A DNA stretch of 64,000 bases from Escherichia phage vB_EcoP_SU7. Positions 6,732 to 21,790 of this stretch are shown one piece after another. The translations under genes and the position numbers were made by a program. Each line of letters begins with the position of its first letter. Within the stretch, counting starts at the first letter, position 1. Location of the stretch: sequence record NC_070980.1. One strand, 5' to 3'. The notes below the pieces were generated by a model, which searched no databases, was not told the DNA's origin, and saw only the letters and a list, made by a program, of their open reading frames with translations.

Positions 6732-6750
6732 TTTTTAATTGGAGGTACTT

Positions 6751-7719
6751 ATGGGTGCTGGAGGTTTTCGAAAGAATACTGGTAGAAACAACACCACACT
6801 TCCGTACAATGTTGGTTTTCTAAACAATGTGCAGGATACAGAAACTTACAACGTTGCCGTCTATGATGAACTACAAAAAGTTAGTACAGCAACTAATCAG
6901 ATGTTTCAAGCCATTGATGAAATACATGAAGAAATTGATGTTAGGATTAAAGCTCTTAATGCAATGAATCTTCAATTTGATGAACTTGAAAACAGAATTA
7001 CTACAGAGATCGAAACAGCTATTGCTGATATTCAAACACAGATGGGCAATCTGTCCACTGAAGATATTTGGGATAATTCAGTACAACCGCCAGTTAAGCT
7101 AGAAAGTTCTATGGCAGGGTTTAAAACTTCTATAGAAGGTAATGAGGTTAAGATACAGTCTGTTGAGGGAATCGTAAACCAGCAGGGAGAGGAAATTGGC
7201 TTAGTTCAAACAGAGATCTCCAACATTAACAGCAGTCTATCTTCTTATATGAAGCTATCTGACTACGAAGCTACGTGGGGAATTAACTCAAACGTCAACG
7301 GCAGGTATGCTGGTGTCAAACTAACTAACAACGGCACGAATAGTCAGTTCCAAGTTACAGCTGATAAGTTTGTTGTAGGTGATGGTAACTCGGGTAATAC
7401 ACCTTTTGTGTTTGAAGGAGGTCGAGCTAAGATAGAGTTTGCTGATATTAAGAACGTCAATATCACAACTGCTCAAATTGCTAATGCTCGTATTCAGTTT
7501 GCTCAAATAGATAACGTGTGGATTACTGATGGTCAGATTGCCAATCTTACAGCTAACAAGATCACTGCTGGCTCTATGAGTGGTTCAAACTGGAGACTTA
7601 CTGTTGGTGGGGATTTTGTGATGGGTGGCACAGGTGGAGCACAGCTCTGGATGAATGGTAATAGAATTGATTTCTATGATGGGAGCGGTGCACTGAGAAT
7701 CAGAATAGGGAGTTGGTAA
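6751..7719 (+). CDS. tail fibre / tail spike-like protein
   Basis: ATG at 6751 preceded by GGAGG (the track start at 6739 is TTG); N-terminal coiled coil, C-terminal repetitive region (…QIANLTANKITAGS…). Confidence 0.6.
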   Translation: MGAGGFRKNTGRNNTTLPYNVGFLNNVQDTETYNVAVYDELQKVSTATNQMFQAIDEIHEEIDVRIKALNAMNLQFDELENRITTEIETAIADIQTQMGNLSTEDIWDNSVQPPVKLESSMAGFKTSIEGNEVKIQSVEGIVNQQGEEIGLVQTEISNINSSLSSYMKLSDYEATWGINSNVNGRYAGVKLTNNGTNSQFQVTADKFVVGDGNSGNTPFVFEGGRAKIEFADIKNVNITTAQIANARIQFAQIDNVWITDGQIANLTANKITAGSMSGSNWRLTVGGDFVMGGTGGAQLWMNGNRIDFYDGSGALRIRIGSW

Positions 7720-7720
7720 T

Positions 7721-8752
7721 ATGGCTTATGGAATATGGTGTCAACCTGTAGGACCGGGACCAGCTTCCCCAGCTCCTCTCTTTATTGATAGCGGAAGCAC
7801 TTTTCCTCAAATAAAAAATTCAATAAGTGGGAGTTTCAACTTTAACGGGGCTGGAAGATCTTTTCCTATTAGTGGGTGGGATGGGAGTGGTCAAATAGTG
7901 ATTGTACCAACAGGCTCTCTTTGTTGGCAATGGGAGGTTCCTCCTAATTTAGTTCCTGATGTATATTGTGTCAACAATATCTATGTAGAGAATAACACAT
8001 CATTCAGGGTTACATTAAACCAAAACCCGGGAAGCAACCCCTTGTTTGACTGTGGTTTCAATGTATATCAAATCTACCCAAGAGCTGATAGGAACTATGG
8101 AATAACCTTCTCTAATACAGCTGATTACTTCTCTATCTCAGATGCTGGGATTGTGGGTCAATGTATCTGGGCTTGGCAAGGAACTATAAACAACGCTCTA
8201 CAGATACCTGATATTGGTGGTTTCTATATGCCTAATGCTGTAGTTTTTGCTAACTGGTCTGATGGTGGTGTTGGTTTATCTTATACGTCAGGAGATAGGG
8301 TGATTCGAGTTTATCAAAACAGGTCTTATAACAATGGCAACACTAATGAAGGTGGTTCTGTGTTTGCTAGGGTTGCTGTATTTTGTAATGGTGCTGGGGT
8401 TCCTGAACACAACGGCGGTTTAAATATATACTCTCCCGGAACTACTCAGTGCGTATTCTCTACTTATAGGTCTCCTTTTACAGTAGACACTTTCGTAGGC
8501 TCAGCAGGTGGAAATACTGGCTTAGCTTATCCTATGATTCCTCTGTCTTCTGGAGTTGGAGCTATCAGAGGAAGTGGGAGTGGTTGGTATTATCAACAAA
8601 TGCGTTCTCATACCATGTCAGGGTCTTCAATAGGAACTGGATATGGTAGATATATGTTCCAATGGTCTAACAGTTATGACTTAGGTTCTAATGCTGCTGT
8701 TAATATCTCCATCCCTGTAATCAACGCTGCTAAGATTTTTGCAGGTTTATGA
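7721..8752 (+). CDS. virion structural protein (function unknown)
   Basis: 343-aa ORF tightly coupled to neighbours; Gly/Ser/Asn-rich. Confidence 0.55.
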   Translation: MAYGIWCQPVGPGPASPAPLFIDSGSTFPQIKNSISGSFNFNGAGRSFPISGWDGSGQIVIVPTGSLCWQWEVPPNLVPDVYCVNNIYVENNTSFRVTLNQNPGSNPLFDCGFNVYQIYPRADRNYGITFSNTADYFSISDAGIVGQCIWAWQGTINNALQIPDIGGFYMPNAVVFANWSDGGVGLSYTSGDRVIRVYQNRSYNNGNTNEGGSVFARVAVFCNGAGVPEHNGGLNIYSPGTTQCVFSTYRSPFTVDTFVGSAGGNTGLAYPMIPLSSGVGAIRGSGSGWYYQQMRSHTMSGSSIGTGYGRYMFQWSNSYDLGSNAAVNISIPVINAAKIFAGL

Positions 8753-8764
8753 TAAGGAGTTTTT

Positions 8765-9562
8765 ATGACAAAAATAATGGGAGTGTCAGAGCTTGACCCT
8801 TTGGTCCAACAAGCTTCTAAGAAATATGGCATTCCTGCTGCTCTTATACATGCAGTGATTCAGAGAGAGTCTAATGGAAGACCTTCTGTTGAATCTGGTA
8901 CAGGACCAGTAGGTTTAATGCAAATCAGTAAGGGGTTGGCTAAAGATTATGGATATAAACTTGAAGATAGGTTAGACCCTGCAAAGAATATTGACATGGG
9001 TGCTAGATATTTAAGAGATAACCTGAAAGCTTTTGATGGTGATGTGAGGAAGGCTTTGGTGGGGTATTCAGAAGGAACTGGTGGTGCTAAGCAAATGTTT
9101 GCTGGTAAGAGAGGGTTTACACCTCAAGCTTTAGATTCAATGAATAATAAGCTGTTCCTACCATTCTTTGATAAGAACACAGCAGCGGCACAAGTGGCTA
9201 ATCCTGTAGGTGCTTTGAAAGCAGTTCAGCCTGTGGACCAGTTTGATTCTAATACGCTGACTAGAGAAGGTGCTGCAAACGCTCCTACTCAAGCAGAGAT
9301 AGCTGCAAGCAAGGCTGGAGCTTTAGGTGGTCGTCCTGTAGAGTTTTACTCTGATGAACAACCTACTGGGGAAAATCAAAAACCTCAACAGAACTTTGGA
9401 AATGCTGTATTGGCAGCTGCTTCTATGCTTGCAGGAAAACAGCCTAACTCTCAAACCGTACAGAGAGCACATGCCCCTACTCAAGCAGGTTCTCGATACA
9501 GTCCACAAACACAAGCCGTGCTGAGACGTTTGTCTAGCATAGGTACTGATATTTACAGATAA
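8765..9562 (+). CDS. virion-associated lytic transglycosylase (SLT domain)
   Basis: IQRESNGRP…GLMQIS…VGYSEGTGG, the SLT catalytic Glu-Ser and GLMQ motifs. Confidence 0.75.
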   Translation: MTKIMGVSELDPLVQQASKKYGIPAALIHAVIQRESNGRPSVESGTGPVGLMQISKGLAKDYGYKLEDRLDPAKNIDMGARYLRDNLKAFDGDVRKALVGYSEGTGGAKQMFAGKRGFTPQALDSMNNKLFLPFFDKNTAAAQVANPVGALKAVQPVDQFDSNTLTREGAANAPTQAEIAASKAGALGGRPVEFYSDEQPTGENQKPQQNFGNAVLAAASMLAGKQPNSQTVQRAHAPTQAGSRYSPQTQAVLRRLSSIGTDIYR

Positions 9563-9571
9563 GGAGGACGT

Positions 9572-10624
9572 ATGTCTCTTTTCGGTTCTGCTCCTAAATC
9601 TAAGACTACGGTAGCTCCGTCTTCTCAGGTTGATGCTCTTCTGAAACAGATTGTAGCAAATGCTCAGGCTATGAATCAAAACGATCAAGGTTTTATTGGT
9701 CGTAACGTAGCGGGTTTTAATGAAAACCAAACAGCAGCTCTTTCTAATTTAGCAAATTCTAACACACTCAACCAACTCAGTCAGATGTACACCCCTAGAA
9801 CTCAACAAGGGTTGGACCAGATGAATGAGTTGGCTCAGAAATATCAAAACCTAGTTAATAAAGGTGGTATCACTGCTCAGGTTGTTAATAATTTTAGCTC
9901 TGGATTGAATAGCTCTGCTTTAGCTAAGTCTACAGGTAAAGCTGCTGCTAATGTATCTCTTGGTAATGGTTCTGATTCAGGTTCTCTTAGACGTGCTGCT
10001 GCTCAAGGTGCTGCTCTCTCTTCAGCGAATACAAACCTTTCTCGTTCTATTCAAGGTAAAAACATGGGTGTTAGCAATCTTATGAATAACAACTCCTATC
10101 AGCAAGGTTTGCTCAATGCTCAATCGGGTCTAGCAAATCAGAATTTGAATCTAGGAGCTGCTGGGGTACAAGCTGGTCAACAGGCAATACAGAATCAGCT
10201 CACTGCTGGGAATCTTCAACAACAGCAAGATCAACTCCAAGCTAACAACAATTGGGAGAATGCTATTGGCAATCAGCAGTATGGTTGGAATCGGCTTAAC
10301 AACCAGCTTAATGTATTAAACTCAGTAAGCCCAATGGCTGGGTACACCATTACTAACAAAGGTGCTGCCCCTAATGTTTCACAACAAATCCTTGGTGCTG
10401 GGGTTACTGGTCTTGGTATTGCTGGACGTCTAGGTGCTTTTACCCCTAATCAGCAAACTACTAATGCTTGGAACTCATACAATGCTTCTGGAGGTCAAGC
10501 TGGGATGGCTGGTCCTATGATTGGTGGCTCAAACCTGTCTCAACAGAATGGTCAGAGCAACTGGTTATCTACCGCAGGAAGTAATATCTTAGGTGGTGTT
10601 CTAGGAGCCTTTGGAGCAAATTAA
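9572..10624 (+). CDS. Gln/Asn/Gly-rich low-complexity virion protein (paralog A)
   Basis: Starts MSLFGS…KTT; GFNENQTAALSNL; paralogous to the next ORF. Confidence 0.6.
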   Translation: MSLFGSAPKSKTTVAPSSQVDALLKQIVANAQAMNQNDQGFIGRNVAGFNENQTAALSNLANSNTLNQLSQMYTPRTQQGLDQMNELAQKYQNLVNKGGITAQVVNNFSSGLNSSALAKSTGKAAANVSLGNGSDSGSLRRAAAQGAALSSANTNLSRSIQGKNMGVSNLMNNNSYQQGLLNAQSGLANQNLNLGAAGVQAGQQAIQNQLTAGNLQQQQDQLQANNNWENAIGNQQYGWNRLNNQLNVLNSVSPMAGYTITNKGAAPNVSQQILGAGVTGLGIAGRLGAFTPNQQTTNAWNSYNASGGQAGMAGPMIGGSNLSQQNGQSNWLSTAGSNILGGVLGAFGAN

Positions 10625-10633
10625 GGAGGAGCT

Positions 10634-11602
10634 ATGGCTTTATTCGGTGGTGGGAGTAGCAAGACTACTTCTAAAATGACAAGACCTGACTACATTCAGT
10701 CCTATATTGATCAGTTGGTCAATCAGGTTAATAGCACTAGTTCAGGCGATTATGTGTATCGAGAAAATGTTGGACTTAATCAAAACCAGCAAGAAGCTCT
10801 GAACAATCTATCACAATCTGGTGCATTAGGTGCACTTTCTTCTCAGTATATGGATGCTGCTCAATCTGGCTTAGGTTATCTAGATAATGCATACTCTGGA
10901 TATAACAACCTGTCTAACTCTGGTCAAATCACTGGGGAACAGATTGGTGCTCTTGCAGGCCAGCTCTATGACGATGAGGCTGTGCAAGCAGCTATTGCAG
11001 CGAATAATGAACAAACCCAACAGAGTTTGGCTAGGAATGCACTTCCTCAAATCTCTCAGCAGTTTGCTGGTCAGCAAGGTTCTGGTGCACGTATGGCTAA
11101 ATCTTTTGCTCAAGGTGATGCTCTGAACCAGATGCAGAACACAGCAACCAATATTACTAATAGTGCTTATGACTCCGCTCTAACTCAAGCACAGAACATT
11201 CTTTCTGGTAATAGACAAACACAAGCATCTGCTTTGGGTGGTTTATCTAACATTGGCTCCAATCTTGCTAATCTAGGAAACCAAGCTGGTCAGTTATCAC
11301 AACAGCAAATGATGAATCAGTGGAATGCAGGACTGCAACAGCAGCAACAACAGCAGTCTGATTTGAACAATGCTTATGAGAATGCTCAGAATGCCGCTAA
11401 TTGGGGTTGGCAGGATATTAACAATCAACTAGGTGCTGCCGGGGTTCTTAATGGAGCTTTAGGGACAACCACAACTACTAAAACATCTGGTGGTAGTGGA
11501 GGCTTCCTAGGTGGTGCTGCTAGCGGTGCTGCTGCTGGCTCAGCTTTTGGCCCTTGGGGTGCTTTAGCTGGCGGTGTTATCGGTGGCTTAGCTAGCTCTT
11601 AA
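10634..11602 (+). CDS. Gln/Asn/Gly-rich low-complexity virion protein (paralog B)
   Basis: Starts MALFGG…KTT; GLNQNQQEALNNL; poly-Q stretch; Gly/Ala-rich tail. Confidence 0.6.
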   Translation: MALFGGGSSKTTSKMTRPDYIQSYIDQLVNQVNSTSSGDYVYRENVGLNQNQQEALNNLSQSGALGALSSQYMDAAQSGLGYLDNAYSGYNNLSNSGQITGEQIGALAGQLYDDEAVQAAIAANNEQTQQSLARNALPQISQQFAGQQGSGARMAKSFAQGDALNQMQNTATNITNSAYDSALTQAQNILSGNRQTQASALGGLSNIGSNLANLGNQAGQLSQQQMMNQWNAGLQQQQQQQSDLNNAYENAQNAANWGWQDINNQLGAAGVLNGALGTTTTTKTSGGSGGFLGGAASGAAAGSAFGPWGALAGGVIGGLASS

Positions 11603-11616
11603 TTAGGAGAATAATT

Positions 11617-13284
11617 ATGCAACAAACTTCTTATGCGTATCTTCGCAGTCAAGACCCAAGAAATCAGATTTATGGTGTTAAACAAGGGGCCGCTTCGGCC
11701 TCTCCATACATGGCAAGACCTGCTTACCCAGCTGCTGATGTTTCAATGTATAGTCAGAGACCTCCTGCCTCTCCTGTAGGTTTATCCTCTCTTGTTGCTA
11801 CTGCTCAAGAAGACCAAGAAGCTATGTTAAATCCGGGATTTAGGCAGCGCCTTATGGAAGCAGAGAATCAAGGGACTCCTACAAGCCTTCAGGGTATTGA
11901 TATTGGCGAACCAGCTCCTGCTATGAATAACCCAGATCTATCCTCTGATGAGGGTCTACAAGCTGCTGGGTTGATGCCTAGTGACCCACTTCCTGTTACT
12001 CCTCCTCGTAAACCTCTGGAAGAAACAGATAAAGAGTTCTCTCCAGTTCAGGTGGAACAGGCTCAGAATGTTATTAACACTTTAGCTAATAGTAATCCAG
12101 CTCCTGAAGGTATGGCTGGTGCAACTCGTGCTAAAGACCAAGAACGTATTAATAATGATATTATGGAAGTAGCTAAAGCTAAAGATCCAGCACAAGCTTG
12201 GAATGAGCTTCAGAAGCAACCGTTCTACCAGAAGTCTAGTTTCTATACTGGCTTAATGGGTGTTGGTCTTTCTATCATGTCAGGTAAATCCCCTATTGAA
12301 GCTTTCCAGATTGGTTCTGGCTTAGCTGCTCAGGATGAAACTAAACAACAACTAGAAGCCAACCGTGATGCTCTGTTAGAACAAGGCTATTCTCAAGATT
12401 CAGTTGCTGCTGCAATTGCTTCGGGAGATCCCTCCCTTCTCAAAATGCGTCAGATTAGTCCTCAGGAGAAGATGGCTCTTGCTGCTCAGGATGAAGAACG
12501 TGCTAATCGTGAGTGGGATAGACGTCAACAGATTCAAGAGAATTCGATGCGGGAACGTGCTGCTGAAACTCGTCGTGCTGCTGAAGAACGTGCTAATGCT
12601 CAGTTCGAGAAACAGAAAGAACTTATTGGATATCGTGATCAAGTTAAAGCAGAGCGTGCAGAGAAGGCTGCTCAGAGCTTTACTTTCAACCCTAAAGAAG
12701 TTCGTCTGGCTCAGAACACAGCAGAAGGTACAGTTGCTAAGCAGTGGGCAGAGAAAGCAGGTCTGTTCAACCAGTCTCATAAGGACTTGGATTTAGCAGA
12801 CAAAGCTGTTAAGGATAAGGATTACCAAACTGCTCGTTCTGCTTACATGCAGGCTATTATGAACTCCGCAAGGGCAGAAATTGGTGCTAACCGTTCTCTC
12901 CAAGCTGATGACTTGGCTCACTTTGCAGAAGACCCGTCAATCTTCGTTAAGGTTGGTAATACTTGGTCCCTTAAAGCAGGCTATCGTCCTTCTGATGCTG
13001 CTCTGTCATATGCTCGTAAGCAGGCAACTGTTGGTGCTACTTCCGCTGAGAAAGGTGTGAAGGATGCTAAGAAAGCAACAATTGAGGCATATATCGGTTC
13101 TGGTATGGATAAGAAAAGAGCTACAGCTCTTGTCAACCGTGCTATCCCATCTGCTGGTTTCTATGACCCATTCGGTACGTTTGAGAGTGAAGCTGAAGCA
13201 GCTGTTGGTGGAGATACTACAAATCCTCGCTTAACAGGTGCTCTTTCTTCTTCAGCGGCAGATACGAGTTGGATGTTCCAGTAA
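11617..13284 (+). CDS. internal virion / ejection protein (unknown)
   Basis: 555-aa ORF with RBS; charged coiled-coil middle. Confidence 0.6.
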   Translation: MQQTSYAYLRSQDPRNQIYGVKQGAASASPYMARPAYPAADVSMYSQRPPASPVGLSSLVATAQEDQEAMLNPGFRQRLMEAENQGTPTSLQGIDIGEPAPAMNNPDLSSDEGLQAAGLMPSDPLPVTPPRKPLEETDKEFSPVQVEQAQNVINTLANSNPAPEGMAGATRAKDQERINNDIMEVAKAKDPAQAWNELQKQPFYQKSSFYTGLMGVGLSIMSGKSPIEAFQIGSGLAAQDETKQQLEANRDALLEQGYSQDSVAAAIASGDPSLLKMRQISPQEKMALAAQDEERANREWDRRQQIQENSMRERAAETRRAAEERANAQFEKQKELIGYRDQVKAERAEKAAQSFTFNPKEVRLAQNTAEGTVAKQWAEKAGLFNQSHKDLDLADKAVKDKDYQTARSAYMQAIMNSARAEIGANRSLQADDLAHFAEDPSIFVKVGNTWSLKAGYRPSDAALSYARKQATVGATSAEKGVKDAKKATIEAYIGSGMDKKRATALVNRAIPSAGFYDPFGTFESEAEAAVGGDTTNPRLTGALSSSAADTSWMFQ

Positions 13285-13304
13285 TCTAAGACCTAAGTCC
13301 TATC

Positions 13305-13322
13305 TCTTATAATGTATATAGG
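13305..13322 (+). promoter_or_regulatory. candidate promoter with TAATGTATATAGG motif
   Basis: TTATAATGTATATAGG about 35 nt upstream of the 13355 start; the same core recurs at 23084-23096 (-), 23157-23171 (+) and 35528-35543 (-). Confidence 0.35.
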
Positions 13323-13354
13323 AGGTAGGACATTTTTATTTATAAGGAGACGTT

Positions 13355-16300
13355 ATGGCTAATTTAAAATCGTGGGAAGAAGCTTCCAAAGCTCCTGCGT
13401 ATCTGAATGCCTCTCCAGAGCAACAGGCTCAAATGAGAGAACAATACAAGGCAGCAGGGGGCACTATTCCTGAGACTCAACCACAAGAGCAACCACAACA
13501 AGAAGAACGAGGTGTTATTGGGGAGTTTGCTCAAGGTGTGTCTAACGCTCTTCAATCAGGTGGTGCTAACATTGCAGCTAGTGCTGCTAAAGGTTTAGGT
13601 GGGCTGGTAGAGATTGGTGAAAACCTAACTGGTTCGGAAACAAGCTATGGTAAGCGCATTCAAGAGAACTCTAAGCAATTGCTGGAAGAACGCTTATCCA
13701 AGATAGGAGATGGTTTTGGTAAAACAGCTGGTCAGTATGCTGGTGTTGCTGCTGATATTGGTTTGACAGTTGCAAACCCTGCTGTTGCTGCTGCTGTTAT
13801 CACAGCTCGTGAAACAGGTCGTGCTTATGCTGATCAAACTCCTAAAGAAGATGAAGATAAGTCAATCTTAGATGCTGCTCTTGTTGGTGGTGCTAACTAC
13901 GCTGCTCAGAAGATACTTCCGGGCATGACTGGTACAGCTTCTACTACTCTAGGTCGTGTAGGACAAAGCGTAGCCTCTAACGCGGTTGCTGGTGCTAAGG
14001 GTGGTGCTATTGTTGGTGCTGCTGAAGCTCAGAACAAATATGGAGATGATACTACTCTAGCTAATGTCTTAGAAGGGGCTATTGAAGAAGGTGCACTCGG
14101 TGCCGCTTATGGTGGGGCGATTGGTGGGGTTCATGGGTTAATAAGTCGTCCTAGTCCTCAAGTGTTTGATCGTACTCCTGAGCATGTTAAGACTGACATT
14201 GCTGCTGAAGATGAGGCTATTCGTAAAGCTGCTAACGCTGATGAACTTCGTGAAGCCTATGCTAAAGCTGAGAATGCTAATGCTGCCTCTGCTTTAAACC
14301 TTCTGGATGAAAATGGTTTCCGAATCACAGATGCAGTTGCTATGGACTCTCCTGCTGTTCAACGTATATTAAATACAGATCAAAGTCGTGCAGAGAAGGC
14401 TGCTACGGTTCAGAAAGATAGTTCTAACGTTCCCGGTCTTAATCCTTTAGCTTCTCCTAAGAAGACTCAAGGTAAAGCTTTTGCTGACAATGAGTACAAC
14501 CAGAAACAAGCTGTGGCAATGAAAGATGCAATGGCTGACTACACTAAAGATAACACCAAAGCCCTTACTGATGTTCTAGACAATCTAGACCGAGAGTTAG
14601 TAGCTCTGAGAGCAAGTGGTGATTTTACTGGTAGTGCTATTGACATTAAAAACCGTACTCAAGCTGATCGTGATTTTATTGATGCTTATAAAACTTTTTA
14701 CAGTGAAGCTAATCGTTTCAAAGCTCGTGATGGTGAAGACCTAAACAACTTCATTGATAAAGCTACTCAGTTGCAGAAGCTCTCTGAAAATGTTTCTCCA
14801 GAAATGAAGAAGGCCATTGGTGGATTAAAGAAACTAAAAGGTATGCCTGAAGGTTTTAACCCTATCCAAGATGCTTTCACTCTGAATAATACAGCTAAGT
14901 TCATGAGTAACCAAGACCGTGGTTGGACCTCTCTGACTGATGACGGTTTTCGTGAAGCTCCGGCTCCTGTGTTAGTTAAGAACCCCCTCGGTGCAGCCAA
15001 GTATGTACTTAACCGCTTTACTTCCGATCGTGCTCGTGCTCAACGTGAGAAGCAACAGTCAGCTAATAGTGAAGCTATCCGCTCTTTGGCTAGGGCTGAT
15101 TTAGAAGTACAACGAGCTAGGACTCAGGCTGAAGAAGCAAGAGCAAAAATGGAAGAAGAACCAACCACAGAAGACATCAAATTCCGTACTCAAAATGATG
15201 CACCTTCCGAACCGGTTCGTGAGGAGCCTTCTGCTACTACTGTGACGGAAGAAATTCCTTCCTCTCCAGCTCCAACTGAAACACCTCTTACTGCGAGGGA
15301 TTTGGTTGCTCAAAGACGTGCTCTACAACAAGCAGAACTTAGACGTCAAGAAGCGGAAGCTGCTCAGGCTCAAGAAAGCACTACTCCAGAACCTGAACCA
15401 CAGCAAGAAGCATTGACAGCGAGAGAGCTAGTAGCTCAGCGCAGGGCTGTAGCAGAAGCGAAGAAACGTCAAGAAGCAGAGGAGGCAGAACGTGCCAAAG
15501 AAGCTCCTGAGAAGACCGTAGAGGAACCTCAAGAGAAACCTGAGCCATTACCTGCTCGTGCGCCTAAAGCTCCTGAGAAGGCTCCTGAGCCTGTTAAACC
15601 ATCACTCGGTGTAGAGCGTCTGGCTTCCATGTCAACTGCTGCCCGTCAGGCAACAAAAGATCGTGCTGACCGATTTGCTCGTTCTTTGTATTCGGCTGCT
15701 GCTAAAGCTAAAGCTACTGCGGAAAACTTCCTTTCTTATAAAGGAGACCCTAAAGAGCTTATGCGTCGTATCCGTCAGGAAGACCAAGCAAACAACACAC
15801 AGCGTCATGAAGAGATGGCTAGAAACCAGCTAGCTTCACAGCAAGGTATTGCTTCTGCTAAGTCTCAACATGTTCGTTCTTCTTTTGCTGATTGGGTAAA
15901 AGAGCGTGGATTGCCTTCTGATATTGCTACTAAGGCTTTACGTGCTGAAGAGAAGGGTTTGGGTGGAAACGTCACAAGTCTAGACTCACTGAAACGAAGA
16001 GCTGAGCGTTTATATCAGAAACAGAGAGATGATGAATTTGACCGTCTCTATCGAGAGGCTCTGGAAGAGAATAAAGCTTTTGACAAGAAAGATGCTCCTA
16101 AACTGGTAGATCAGAAGAAAGAGCTTCAGGATGAAATTGGTACACTGCTTGATGCAGAACCGTTACGTCCTGCTCAGAAAGATGCTATGCGTAGGATTAT
16201 GGAAGACTTCGTGGAGAGTAAGTTTAAATCTTCAGAGAGAGCTGGAAGGGTTGAGGCTTTGGAAGTTGGTCAGATGAAGGATGTGTGGGATGGGTTTATT

Positions 16301-17800
16301 AATACCTATAACCGAGAAGTTAACATGTTCAACAAGGCTAACAAGAATTCTCAATACGAAGCAGCAGCTAAACACTTGCAAGCACGTCAAGAACGTCTTG
16401 AGACGCTCCGTAACAGAGCTAAAGCTCGCAGTGATGCTAAGGCAGCCATGGAGGCTGAGAAGCAGTCCTTGGAGGCTATAGCGGCTCAGAAATCCGAGAT
16501 GGAGAAGATGTTCAAAGAGTTGCCTGAAAGTGTCAGAGAAGCTCAGGAAGGTCGTACTTTGAAGCAGCTTGCTGCTCACCACGATAAAAACTCTCCAGTA
16601 CCACCAGAGCGTTTCCGTAGTATTATTGAACGTATTCACAACGCTGAGAGTGATTACCTCGATCGCAAACGTCGTTTGACCGAAGCAGAGGAAGATGCTC
16701 GTGAGGCTAAGTGGAACAGGATGTATGAACAGGCTGAGGAAATGAACCGTAGGTTTGATATTGATTCTAGAGTGAAGAGAGATAAGGCTCTGAAAGAAGC
16801 TCAGGAACGGGAGAATGACCTAATGGCAGTTCAACGTCAACGTGACGACATTCATAAGCGTTTAGTCAACACTCTGGAAGAGAAGGGGGTTTCTAGGGAG
16901 GATGCTGAAGCGTATGCTGGTTCTTATATGGACAATCGGTATGCTTTGTTAGAGAAACCTATGACTCCAGTGGAACATCAGAATGCTCGTGCTCGTATCG
17001 AATCTGACGTAGAGAAGTTTGTTAAGAAGTATGAAACAGCTACTCCAATCGAAAGAGAGATTGCTAAGGCAACTGGTGATGCAGATGGGAAAGCTTCTGA
17101 CCTTGATGCAGAAACAGCAAAAGCTATCGAAGATGCTCGTAAAGTTGATTCTGATTTTAAGAAACTTTTAGATGAAGAGAAAGAAATGGAGAAGATTCGT
17201 TCGGCTCTACCTGAGGATGAAAGATCTCAGGCTAACTCTGATATTCTTGAAAGTATTAAGAAGCAGGAAGATGACTTTGCTAACAAAGCAGAGAAAGCTT
17301 TTATTGAAGGGAAAGACTTGCAGGAGTTGGCGAGTGTTGCAGAGGTTCTAGATAGGGTTCATGGTGCAGATAAGGCTGGTAACAACCGTCGATTTGTGCG
17401 TGCTCTACAGACTGCTGCTGAGAACAAGAAACGTTATGGAGATAATCCAGTGGCTTGGTTTAGTGCTGATGATTATTCTGCTATTGCGAAACTTGGTGCT
17501 GCTTCGGCAGGTGGTAACAAATCTCGAGCACTTGAGAAGATCTTTGGTTCTACAGCAGAACAAGCTAAAGGGAAACTTTTAGGGAGGGATGATGTAGCTA
17601 AGATTAGACGTGTGATTGAAGCGAATCCTAATGCTAAGATTCCTTCTTACAAGACAACTACTCGACAAGAGTATTTACAGTTCTTGGAGAAGTATAATGA
17701 CGAGGGAGAGTTGAAAGTCAAACGTGGTTCTCTGTCTGACAAGTTGGAGAGAAGTAAGCGTCAAGCTAAACTTCGTGTTAGAGTTCGAGCTAAGGAGTAA
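13355..17800 (+). CDS. very large charged coiled-coil protein (internal virion / ejection or tape-measure-like)
   Basis: 1,481 aa, Ala/Glu/Lys/Arg-rich with long helical repeats; last gene of the + module; terminator follows. Confidence 0.7.
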   Translation: MANLKSWEEASKAPAYLNASPEQQAQMREQYKAAGGTIPETQPQEQPQQEERGVIGEFAQGVSNALQSGGANIAASAAKGLGGLVEIGENLTGSETSYGKRIQENSKQLLEERLSKIGDGFGKTAGQYAGVAADIGLTVANPAVAAAVITARETGRAYADQTPKEDEDKSILDAALVGGANYAAQKILPGMTGTASTTLGRVGQSVASNAVAGAKGGAIVGAAEAQNKYGDDTTLANVLEGAIEEGALGAAYGGAIGGVHGLISRPSPQVFDRTPEHVKTDIAAEDEAIRKAANADELREAYAKAENANAASALNLLDENGFRITDAVAMDSPAVQRILNTDQSRAEKAATVQKDSSNVPGLNPLASPKKTQGKAFADNEYNQKQAVAMKDAMADYTKDNTKALTDVLDNLDRELVALRASGDFTGSAIDIKNRTQADRDFIDAYKTFYSEANRFKARDGEDLNNFIDKATQLQKLSENVSPEMKKAIGGLKKLKGMPEGFNPIQDAFTLNNTAKFMSNQDRGWTSLTDDGFREAPAPVLVKNPLGAAKYVLNRFTSDRARAQREKQQSANSEAIRSLARADLEVQRARTQAEEARAKMEEEPTTEDIKFRTQNDAPSEPVREEPSATTVTEEIPSSPAPTETPLTARDLVAQRRALQQAELRRQEAEAAQAQESTTPEPEPQQEALTARELVAQRRAVAEAKKRQEAEEAERAKEAPEKTVEEPQEKPEPLPARAPKAPEKAPEPVKPSLGVERLASMSTAARQATKDRADRFARSLYSAAAKAKATAENFLSYKGDPKELMRRIRQEDQANNTQRHEEMARNQLASQQGIASAKSQHVRSSFADWVKERGLPSDIATKALRAEEKGLGGNVTSLDSLKRRAERLYQKQRDDEFDRLYREALEENKAFDKKDAPKLVDQKKELQDEIGTLLDAEPLRPAQKDAMRRIMEDFVESKFKSSERAGRVEALEVGQMKDVWDGFINTYNREVNMFNKANKNSQYEAAAKHLQARQERLETLRNRAKARSDAKAAMEAEKQSLEAIAAQKSEMEKMFKELPESVREAQEGRTLKQLAAHHDKNSPVPPERFRSIIERIHNAESDYLDRKRRLTEAEEDAREAKWNRMYEQAEEMNRRFDIDSRVKRDKALKEAQERENDLMAVQRQRDDIHKRLVNTLEEKGVSREDAEAYAGSYMDNRYALLEKPMTPVEHQNARARIESDVEKFVKKYETATPIEREIAKATGDADGKASDLDAETAKAIEDARKVDSDFKKLLDEEKEMEKIRSALPEDERSQANSDILESIKKQEDDFANKAEKAFIEGKDLQELASVAEVLDRVHGADKAGNNRRFVRALQTAAENKKRYGDNPVAWFSADDYSAIAKLGAASAGGNKSRALEKIFGSTAEQAKGKLLGRDDVAKIRRVIEANPNAKIPSYKTTTRQEYLQFLEKYNDEGELKVKRGSLSDKLERSKRQAKLRVRVRAKE

Positions 17801-18028: not shown

Positions 18029-18328
18029 CTAGATTAAATCATAATACTTAATAATATCAGAGAGTTTGAACTCTCGAATGTCGTTCTTGTCGTTGTCCCA
18101 AGCGGTCATTATCCAACAAGGTTTGCCCCCATTATGATAACGGGAAGAAGCAACTGAGGTTCGTAAAGGAATAACGGAGCGGTCTGCAATCTCGCCTCTC
18201 CAATTACGATAGCTAAAGCGAAGAACTTGTTTCGTAGATACTTGATCATGTGTGTTTTCCTTATTCATAGATTCAAAGACTTCCTTCTCTTCAGGAGTCT
18301 CTAGATTTTTTAAATTCGCGTCTTGCAT
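18029..18328 (-). CDS. hypothetical protein
   Basis: ORF on the replication strand; start placed at the internal ATG (MQDANL…); start uncertain. Confidence 0.4.
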   Translation of the reverse strand: MQDANLKNLETPEEKEVFESMNKENTHDQVSTKQVLRFSYRNWRGEIADRSVIPLRTSVASSRYHNGGKPCWIMTAWDNDKNDIREFKLSDIIKYYDLI

Positions 18329-18695
18329 CGTTTTCCTCTTTAGTCTTAATCTTATGGCAAGACTCTTTACATAAGACTTGAAAACCATCTTTCTCAACTA
18401 AAGCCCTCTCGATGATTTCATCCCAAGTAGCTTCATGGTCCACTGGAACAATAGGCTCGATGTGGTCGACAGCCACCTCTTTCAGAGGAGAGTCATTACC
18501 GCACATGGCACACTTGTAGTGCATTGCCAGCTTGCCAGTCTTAGGGTTGATTTTACGTTCTGTCTGAGCTTCTTTGAGAGCATCAAACATAGGCTTCCAC
18601 TTTCTAGTCAGAGAACGAATCCCTGACTTAATGAAGGAGTTATAACGTGCTTCAGTCCACTGACCAGAGCATCTTGTCTTCTCAGCTTTCGCCAT
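18291..18695 (-). CDS. HNH endonuclease
   Basis: CAMCGND…VDHIEPIV…CH, an HNH zinc-finger nuclease motif. Confidence 0.55.
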   Translation of the reverse strand: MAKAEKTRCSGQWTEARYNSFIKSGIRSLTRKWKPMFDALKEAQTERKINPKTGKLAMHYKCAMCGNDSPLKEVAVDHIEPIVPVDHEATWDEIIERALVEKDGFQVLCKESCHKIKTKEENDARREFKKSRDS

Positions 18696-21193: not shown

Positions 21194-21456
21194 TGTATTC
21201 CTCTCTCCTTTAGAGCTTTAAGCAAACCGTTGTGGTTAGCGGCACAGGTTGTATAAGTGTCCTGATACCACTCGAGTGTTGTTGCAAGTGCTACTCCCTG
21301 TCCACTCTGAAGTAAAGGGAGGTCTACATCACATTCAGCTTTTAGGTTTGTTGGTAAGGGCATTAGCTGCCTGCTGTTGTCGCTCGTTGAACAAGCCATC
21401 AAACTAGAAGCGAGAAAAATCACCAAACAACTCTTTTGCTTTTTCTTTGTAAGCAT
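21190..21456 (-). CDS. lipoprotein, candidate outer-membrane spanin
   Basis: Signal peptide with lipobox LMAC; short mature part with Pro and Cys; lies downstream of the candidate inner-membrane spanin. Confidence 0.4.
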   Translation of the reverse strand: MLTKKKQKSCLVIFLASSLMACSTSDNSRQLMPLPTNLKAECDVDLPLLQSGQGVALATTLEWYQDTYTTCAANHNGLLKALKERGIQ

Positions 21457-21790
21457 TTTCTGCACCCTCTTGAGTGCTGTGATAACCAAGCCAAATTACT
21501 TTGTTTTGATATCCGATGCGAGCACTCCATTTGTTAATATCCGACCTGTACCCTACACCTTTTATTCCAGTTAAAGAGTTCTTTTGAACTATTTTGTTGG
21601 CATTATTAAGGACAGGTGTTGCTCTTCTTAGATTGCTCCAAGAATTATTAGATTTGTCTAAATCTTTATGGTCTATTTGAAAATCAGGAATCTCTCCAGT
21701 TTTGATATACCAAGCAATTCTATGAGCTTTGTACTGTTTATATTGATAGGTAATCACTGTATAGCCATCTGTGGCTTTACAACCTGCCAC
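21404..21790 (-). CDS. HNH homing endonuclease with AP2-like DNA-binding domain
   Basis: IDHKDLDKSNNSWSNLR (HNH) and GIKGVGYRSDINKWSARIGY…GYHSTQEGAENAY (AP2-like). Confidence 0.6.
   Translation of the reverse strand: MAGCKATDGYTVITYQYKQYKAHRIAWYIKTGEIPDFQIDHKDLDKSNNSWSNLRRATPVLNNANKIVQKNSLTGIKGVGYRSDINKWSARIGYQNKVIWLGYHSTQEGAENAYKEKAKELFGDFSRF

Follow-up and report, generated by a model that had tools for sequence, protein, structure and literature searches.

A conserved gene pair for Q/N-rich ejection proteins in Escherichia phage vB_EcoP_SU7: paralogy and a glycine-zipper tail resembling that of P22 gp7

The closest described counterparts of the proteins analyzed here are the ejection proteins of phage SU10, whose gp20 to gp24, together with the tail needle gp18, are found in virions and are missing from in-vitro genome-release intermediates, as determined by sodium dodecyl sulfate polyacrylamide gel electrophoresis and mass spectrometry (PMC9509320, Suppl. 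Fig. 4C, Suppl. Table 1). The authors of this cryo-electron microscopy study term gp20 to gp24 ejection proteins and report that the head shows no ordered density for them; gp21 and gp22 accompany the packaged DNA there without building an ordered core, and they exit the particle after release of the tail needle (PMC9509320). The assignment is repeated in a genomic study of the Kuravirus group (PMC9965538), and shotgun proteomics of SU10 phage preparations recovered gp21 with 53% coverage (11 peptides) and gp22 with 49% (5 peptides) (PMC4281155). In other podoviruses, P22 gp7 and T7 gp14 are grouped together: each is the outer-membrane factor of the ejectosome, small and the first to be ejected, and belongs to a type of protein of 181-240 amino acids (aa) (PMC8954989). 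Here, we compare with these systems two adjacent genes, designated A and B, of Escherichia phage vB_EcoP_SU7 (sequence record NC_070980.1), analyzed within a window of 64,000 nucleotides (nt), the whole stretch under study, to whose positions the coordinates refer. The interval 9572-11602 consists of exactly two plus-strand open reading frames (ORFs), A and B, as an initial annotation of this DNA had delimited it; small ORFs that overlap them in another frame or on the opposite strand are without support.

Between nt 8700 and 13400, the window is 99.5% identical to Escherichia phage AnnaHegner_Bas87, a member of the Gordonclarkvirinae (PMC11990801), in which both genes are annotated as "DNA ejection protein" (Bas87_0017 and Bas87_0018). 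Matches were obtained in 97 phage records, nearly all of them from phiEco32/SU10-group phages of E. coli or Shigella, and these similarities identify the source phage as a Kuravirus-like (Gordonclarkvirinae, phiEco32/SU10-like) podophage. The gene order is that of SU10, comprising gp17 (nozzle), gp18 (needle), gp19, gp20 (SLT), gp21, gp22, gp23 and gp24, and also that of Bas87 gp13-gp20. A shares 77.4% aa identity with SU10 gp21 (SU10_021, 350 aa) and B shares 81.7% with gp22 (SU10_022, 322 aa), each at the same length; between A/B and the proteins of SU10, phiEco32 and Bas87, which agree in length, gene order, neighbors and membership of PHROG 4287, there is no difference of substance. Judged by similarity and synteny, A and B are orthologues of SU10 gp21 and gp22 and hence ejection proteins, an assignment that is already known and annotated. 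They are counted here as published ejection proteins because SU10 gp21 and gp22 occur in virions and are lost from genome-release intermediates. The initial annotation had proposed virion ejection proteins, a proposal that hinged on their presence in purified virions; it is borne out by the SU10 orthologues, both of which were detected by mass spectrometry and are lost on genome release (PMC4281155, PMC9509320).

The two proteins are true paralogues, related far beyond chance. Composition-adjusted BLASTP aligns A with B over 270 aa at 29% identity (E 1e-13), and the alignment of their families with hhalign spans 280 columns, beginning at the N-terminus and reaching the first glycine-zipper segment, with a probability of 99.9% (E 8.9e-33). 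Both proteins match phrog_4287 ("DNA ejection protein"), A over residues 1-350 (E 3.4e-104) and B over residues 1-310 (E 2.1e-98). Tandem paralogy with a shared MxLFGx start had been claimed from the sequence at the outset, and both parts of the claim hold: the N-terminus reads MSLFGSAPKSKTT in A and MALFGGGSSKTT in B, and the two alignments carry the paralogy. The similarity includes the start signals, with TAAGGAGG, a strong ribosome-binding site (RBS), lying 4 bases 5' of the ATG in both genes and the 27 nt around the two starts, RBS included, being 81% identical. The pair probably derives from an old tandem duplication of one ancestral gene. At the C-terminus, A carries an extension of about 60 residues that is found neither in B nor in single-copy relatives and is modeled with a predicted local distance difference test (pLDDT) score below 50.

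Each protein contains a glycine-zipper segment. In A, residues 273-291 have the highest hydropathy of the protein (KD19 1.29), with G275 and G285 invariant and G277, G282 and G288 at least 90% conserved. The zipper of B ends in a P-W-G motif at the extreme C-terminus, as does that of P22 gp7, whose C-terminus is GGGASGAIAGAGLAKLIGSSTPWGAAIGGGIGLLGSLF and whose tail, with its P-W-G-A motif, aligns to the tail of B; the zipper of A is related, but internal and without P-W-G. Using hhalign, the B tail is matched to the gp7 tail with a probability of 78% for the single gp7 sequence and of 91.7% (E 7.8e-7) for the gp7 family alignment, while the gp7 tail against the profile of 124 members of the A/B family reaches 95.6% (E 1.1e-8). 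The match is not one of mere composition, because the reversed tail, used as a control, gives only 1.7%. The tails of relatives show weak to moderate matches to the Gly-zipper_Omp, Gly-zipper_YMGG and 2TM glycine-zipper models of Pfam. By analogy, A and B are placed functionally with the gp14/gp7 class, and not as members of the gp7 family, because of this tail match and because gp7 is grouped with T7 gp14.

P22 gp7 (PF25688) further resembles A and B in being small and the first-encoded ejection protein of its cluster, and differs in its length (229 aa versus 322-350 aa), in its single copy rather than two, and in an N-terminus that is cleaved by host OpdA. P22 gp7, gp20 and gp16 belong to PHROGs other than 4287. 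T7 gp14, the outer-membrane pore of the T7 ejectosome and the protein with which an analogous role is proposed (PMC8954989), is likewise small and helical, and its gene precedes those of a mid-sized and a very large ejection protein; unlike A and B, it contains 20% charged residues and 13% Q/N and shows no sequence similarity to them. T7 also possesses an ordered core stack, whereas SU10 has none. Kinship of the helical bodies with P22 gp20 (0.3%), P22 gp14, SP6 gp35, epsilon15 gp13/gp14 and T7 gp14 was considered as well and rejected, all comparisons being negative.

The composition of the pair is strongly biased. Glutamine and asparagine together account for 26.9% of A and 24.2% of B, the two highest contents in the set of 36 window ORFs that reach 150 aa or more (median 8.8%, standard deviation 4.5), and charged residues for 6.9% and 8.1%, the two lowest in the same set, while sequence entropy is 3.66-3.67 bits as against 3.94-4.12 for the neighbors. 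Across 124 family members the median Q/N content is 21%; the Q/N/A/G-rich, nearly uncharged make-up is thus a trait of the whole family, and an interpretation as loose low-complexity sequence is rejected. The initial annotation had described Q/N-rich repeats including a poly-Q run and had considered such a composition unusual for structural proteins. Of this description, the biased composition and the run of seven glutamines in B stand, but the repeats do not: neither A nor B contains internal repeats, alternative self-alignments of either family profile remaining at or below 0.5% probability, and at the DNA level there are none beyond the CAA/CAG codons of the poly-Q run. The run itself is homopolymeric in close relatives only, distant homologues being Q-rich at this place without a run, and Q241 is invariant; A contains a run of four glutamines at residues 216-219. 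As for the supposed rarity of the composition, it is contradicted by P22 gp7, which is similarly composed (Q+N 18%, G 14%, A 17%, charged residues 10%).

To describe the fold, monomer models were generated with AlphaFold2 from alignments of 27 and 33 sequences, and helices were assigned by DSSP. Both models are about 70% helical and of low confidence (mean pLDDT 53 for A and 43.5 for B), with long helices predicted at residues 137-252 of A (about 115 residues) and 194-272 of B (about 79 residues) and with the last 50-100 residues Gly-rich and unstructured. In the B helix 194-272 the helical hydrophobic moment exceeds that of shuffled sequence (z 3.4), and amphipathicity is significant there only; the long helices of A and B show no clear heptad register. 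A Pfam scan of A and B returned no family even at E<=10, and sequence and profile searches of the PDB gave nothing meaningful, the best matches being a lysozyme repeat (E 0.21) and designed helical repeats; a solved homologue of P22 gp7 was not found in the PDB either. Foldseek against the PDB gave no match at E<=0.001 and only generic helices of coiled-coil or alpha-pore-forming-toxin type at E>=0.5, and against BFVD only uncharacterized phage homologues with TM-scores of 0.2-0.3, the queries being low-confidence AlphaFold2 models and the searches hence uninformative.

At the sequence level, both proteins are constrained. Relative to SU10, the ratio of nonsynonymous to synonymous substitution rates (dN/dS) amounts to 0.11 in A and 0.10 in B, compared with 0.07-0.15 for the nozzle, the SLT protein and gp23/gp24; synonymous sites of the window are saturated (dS about 1.5-1.7; above 1.4), yet the lengths of A and B are unchanged. 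Invariant columns number 26 in A and 28 in B among homologues down to 38-40% identity, and include W, Y, P, N and many G. The early suggestion that the proteins are disordered is therefore only partly retained: the missing ordered density in the SU10 capsid and the low AlphaFold confidence agree with it, while the predicted helix content of about 70%, the invariant positions, the fixed lengths and a dN/dS near 0.1 do not.

Taken together, we consider it probable that a five-protein ejection cassette (SLT protein, A, B, and the 555-aa and 1481-aa proteins) has A and B as its two small members and that these serve a membrane-proximal role in the conduit. Following their release, A and B would thread through the portal and the nozzle channel while extended and, once outside, refold into long α-helical hairpins or bundles, forming helical oligomers, with the helices held by polar side-chain contacts and small-residue packing, an arrangement that would suit a protein unfolding and refolding unaided. 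The C-terminal glycine-zipper segments may then be inserted into the envelope-proximal portion of a trans-envelope conduit, or form its lining, at the nozzle tip, which would by analogy be the role assigned to T7 gp14 and P22 gp7. A and B would probably form a hetero-oligomer, while the SLT protein would cut peptidoglycan and the two large proteins would build the rest of the tunnel. The fusion of other family members to cell-wall hydrolases (Hydrolase_2, SLT) speaks for this scheme.

Several points weigh against it. All experimental evidence comes from SU10 and not from the present phage, and the SU10 experiments cover virion presence and release; the hetero-oligomer is purely inferred. Beyond the tail of 34-40 residues there is no homology to gp7, the best alignment of the body covering 19 columns at 63%, and the Pfam model P22_gp7 (gathering score 28 bits), on which P22 gp7 itself scores 428 bits, gives no match to A or B at E<=10. 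Homology to T7 gp14 is not detected (hhalign 0.3%). The zipper segments are Gly/Ala-rich and only weakly hydrophobic, with KD19 values of 1.07-1.29 that lie below the approximately 1.6 usual for a transmembrane helix, and the tails are best read as glycine zippers, not as classical transmembrane helices. The low AlphaFold confidence and the lack of a significant match in the fold searches count in the same direction.

An alternative that shares the ejection of A and B holds that they constitute the periplasmic tube (the role of T7 gp15 or P22 gp20) or an assembly "tape" for the large proteins rather than a membrane-proximal pore. Their size, at 322-350 aa larger than the gp14/gp7 type (PMC8954989), would fit such a function, as would the long helices predicted in both and a tail hydrophobicity too weak for a classical transmembrane helix; moreover, the SU10 nozzle extends the tail by 28 nm (PMC9509320), such that an outer-membrane pore protein may be less needed. 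However, the positions of tunnel and inner-membrane factor are already filled by the 555-aa and 1481-aa proteins, and the one characterized ejection protein to which A and B bear a specific likeness is P22 gp7, by its tail, gp7 being a small factor of the outer-membrane class. We regard a tube or tape function as unlikely.

Less still speaks for A and B as internal head proteins that organize or space the DNA, plug the portal or represent a scaffold remnant, and that are lost passively with the DNA and have no conduit role, which we judge quite improbable. A near-neutral polar composition would be inert beside DNA, the SU10 head lacks ordered density for these proteins and its portal barrel contains unassigned density (PMC9509320), but strong purifying selection with position-specific conservation over the whole length, glycine-zipper tails conserved in common with a bona fide ejection protein, and the hydrolase fusions and self-cleaving S74 domains of the family, which point to extracellular or periplasmic action, all stand against it. 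The literal reading of the first proposal makes A and B prion-like and intrinsically disordered, of Q/N-rich low complexity, and lets composition rather than a fold determine what they do. It draws on their Q+N content of 24-27%, poly-Q run, low entropy and low AlphaFold confidence, and is very improbable given the absence of repeats, a run that is not conserved as such, identical lengths at saturated dS with dN/dS near 0.1, invariant W, Y, G, N and P in homologues at about 40% identity, and consistent helix predictions.

The placement of A and B in a membrane-proximal conduit can be set beside the wider family to which they belong. When 1.84 billion representative proteins were scanned in full with HMMER, 2984 clusters were retrieved at E<=1e-3, and 544 clusters at the stricter cutoff of E<=1e-10; most measure 300-360 aa, and a smaller share measures 400-430 aa or 770-1560 aa. 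The order A then B occurs in every SU10-like locus examined, namely the window, Bas87, SU10, phiEco32-type IMG/VR contigs, three uncultured relatives of 82-90 kb and an E. coli chromosomal element. A single copy is present in the remaining prolate podophages, namely in Aeromonas phage BUCT695 and in a metagenomic relative (L007), as well as, by tblastn, in Salmonella phage 7-11, Cronobacter phage GAP52, Proteus phage Privateer and Aeromonas LAh phages. Because these single-copy relatives score higher with the B-type hidden Markov model than with the A-type model, B is the conservative copy, and A has diverged. With lengths of 400-430 aa, these single-copy proteins match phrog_4287 (E 4.5e-101) and align to the B family with hhalign probabilities of 99.4-99.8%.

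These single-copy "DNA injection/ejection proteins" occupy the same place in the structural module as A and B and have a nearly identical glycine-zipper tail; in contrast to A and B, they exist as one copy and continue straight after the tail into a C-terminal Peptidase_S74 domain starting with SDxxxK. Peptidase_S74 is the intramolecular chaperone of endosialidases; S74 domains reportedly act as trimers and cleave at a conserved serine. Neither the domain nor its SDxxxK motif is present in A or B. In L007 (8001-9272) the sequence reads ...GGAASGAAIGSAFGPIGTGVGAVAGGVIGAF directly followed by SDATLKDRV..., and B ends in ...GGAASGAAAGSAFGPWGALAGGVIGGLASS, its end lying within 3 residues of the start of Peptidase_S74 in the single-copy relatives. 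An S74 match is located at the tail end in 10 of 10 scanned proteins of 400-430 aa, three of which exceed the Pfam threshold, and in two long fusions the match scores 33-40 bits, with one fusion running on into a Hydrolase_2 cell-wall hydrolase. Among 50 longer family members, S74 is found in 17, Hydrolase_2 in 2 and SLT in 2 (E<=1e-3). Because S74 domains are said to cleave at the conserved serine, the mature single-copy protein would end where B ends, which hints at a trimer-based assembly. No paper linking S74 domains to ejection proteins was found.

A broader and more tentative reading joins these observations. The family would form an essentially undescribed superfamily of about 3000 clusters (at 50% identity), whose ancestral S74-bearing precursor trimerized and cut itself at the tail end; Kuravirus-like phages would have lost S74, duplicated the gene and come to depend on an obligate A/B hetero-oligomer, and the shared tail would link them to the outer-membrane factors of P22 gp7 type. 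As part of this possible scenario, in some phages the S74 cut might also release a downstream peptidoglycan hydrolase.

Two further observations concern relatives of A and B. A complete SU10-type structural and ejection module lies at 204317-225285 of contig DAHCAP010000002.1 of E. coli GCA_023211535.1, a chromosomal contig of 389 kb, and comprises SU10_MCP, terminase, SU10_portal, SLT, an A-type protein of 334 aa, a B-type protein of 322 aa, a 498-aa protein and an 1113-aa protein; similar B-type proteins occur on Enterobacter contigs of 317 kb and on another E. coli contig of 132 kb. These sequences suggest that the Kuravirus-like phages, supposedly strictly lytic, have relatives that are temperate or reside in the host in some other way. 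In the single-copy phages, the next gene on the 3' side of the family member codes for another small Gly/Ala/Ser-rich protein; in BUCT695 (locus L003), where the family member lies at 8743-9945, it is gp110 (9971-10648; AGAIVGGALAAGGAAGSAGSAGASG...), which shows no detectable relationship to A or B (hhalign 3%) and may replace the second small subunit without being homologous to it.

The coordinates of the genes, their start signals and the predicted protein segments are given in Table 1.

Table 1. Coordinates in the window of genes A and B, their predicted segments and the neighboring genes of the ejection cassette.
Feature	Coordinates	Strand	Description
Gene A	9572..10624	+	350 aa, ATG start; orthologue of SU10 gp21; divergent paralogue
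Gene B	10634..11602	+	322 aa, ATG start; orthologue of SU10 gp22 ("DNA injection protein"); nearer the single-copy ancestral form
RBS of gene A	9560..9567	+	TAAGGAGG, read from sequence
RBS of gene B	10622..10629	+	TAAGGAGG, read from sequence
A helical body, residues 18-252	9623..10327	+	Predicted; Q/N/A/L-rich; one long helix 137-252; aligns with B body (hhalign)
A glycine-zipper segment, residues 273-291	10388..10444	+	ILGAGVTGLGIAGRLGAF; hhalign-aligned counterpart of B tail
A-specific extension, residues 292-350	10445..10621	+	Gly/Asn/Gln/Ser-rich; ends in a second small glycine zipper, GSNILGGVLGAFGAN
B helical body, residues 19-272	10688..11449	+	Predicted, AlphaFold2 DSSP
B Thr-rich linker and C-terminal glycine-zipper tail, residues 277-322	11462..11599	+	GGFLGGAASGAAAGSAFGPWGALAGGVIGGLASS; most conserved part of the B family
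B poly-Q run (Q7), residues 235-241	11336..11356	+	Within the last long predicted helix
SLT lytic transglycosylase	8765..9562	+	Pfam SLT E 1.6e-24; phrog_12507; orthologue of SU10 gp20; opens the ejection cassette
555-aa ejection protein	11617..13284	+	phrog_12130; synteny; orthologue of SU10 gp23
1481-aa ejection protein	13355..17800	+	phrog_14629; synteny; orthologue of SU10 gp24

A and B lie directly 3' of the SLT gene and 5' of the genes for the 555-aa and 1481-aa proteins, and their position between the SLT protein and large internal proteins, as first described, is thereby confirmed. A scan of the cassette for promoters and terminators gave counts at or below shuffled expectation and none between A and B. 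A strong terminator-like hairpin, with a 15-bp stem followed by a T-run, is located at 13297-13331 between the 555-aa and 1481-aa genes, within a 70-nt gap that is the only sizeable intergenic gap of the cassette. Between the tail needle and the SLT gene, positions 7721-8752 encode a 343-aa gp19-like protein (Pfam DUF6453; PHROG label "membrane protein, moron"), which is the third least charged ORF (8.7%) and whose SU10 orthologue was not detected in virions. The tail needle ORF at 6739-7719 was called from TTG 6739 (326 aa), and the Bas87/SU10 annotation of 322 aa corresponds to the ATG at 6751. Two ORFs resembling HNH-type homing endonucleases, at 18291-18695 and 21404-21790 (minus strand), are annotated as HNH endonucleases in Bas87 and lie in the early/middle region just downstream of the structural module.

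The identity of A and B as ejection proteins is already known, from the annotation of the 99.5%-identical Bas87 and from the proteomics that showed the SU10 orthologues to be ejected. In the published work, as far as found, gp21 is called "hypothetical", and the paralogy of gp21 and gp22, their glycine-zipper tails and their site after ejection are not commented on. The points that appear to be new are incremental: that gp21 and gp22 are paralogues, that a gp7-like tail is present, that relatives have S74 precursors and that the duplication is conserved. The value as a discovery is small, the finding being correct but ordinary. For the study of podovirus genome delivery, the value is modest and consists of hypotheses on stoichiometry, which may be trimer-based and heteromeric, and on the end of the protein that would face the membrane.

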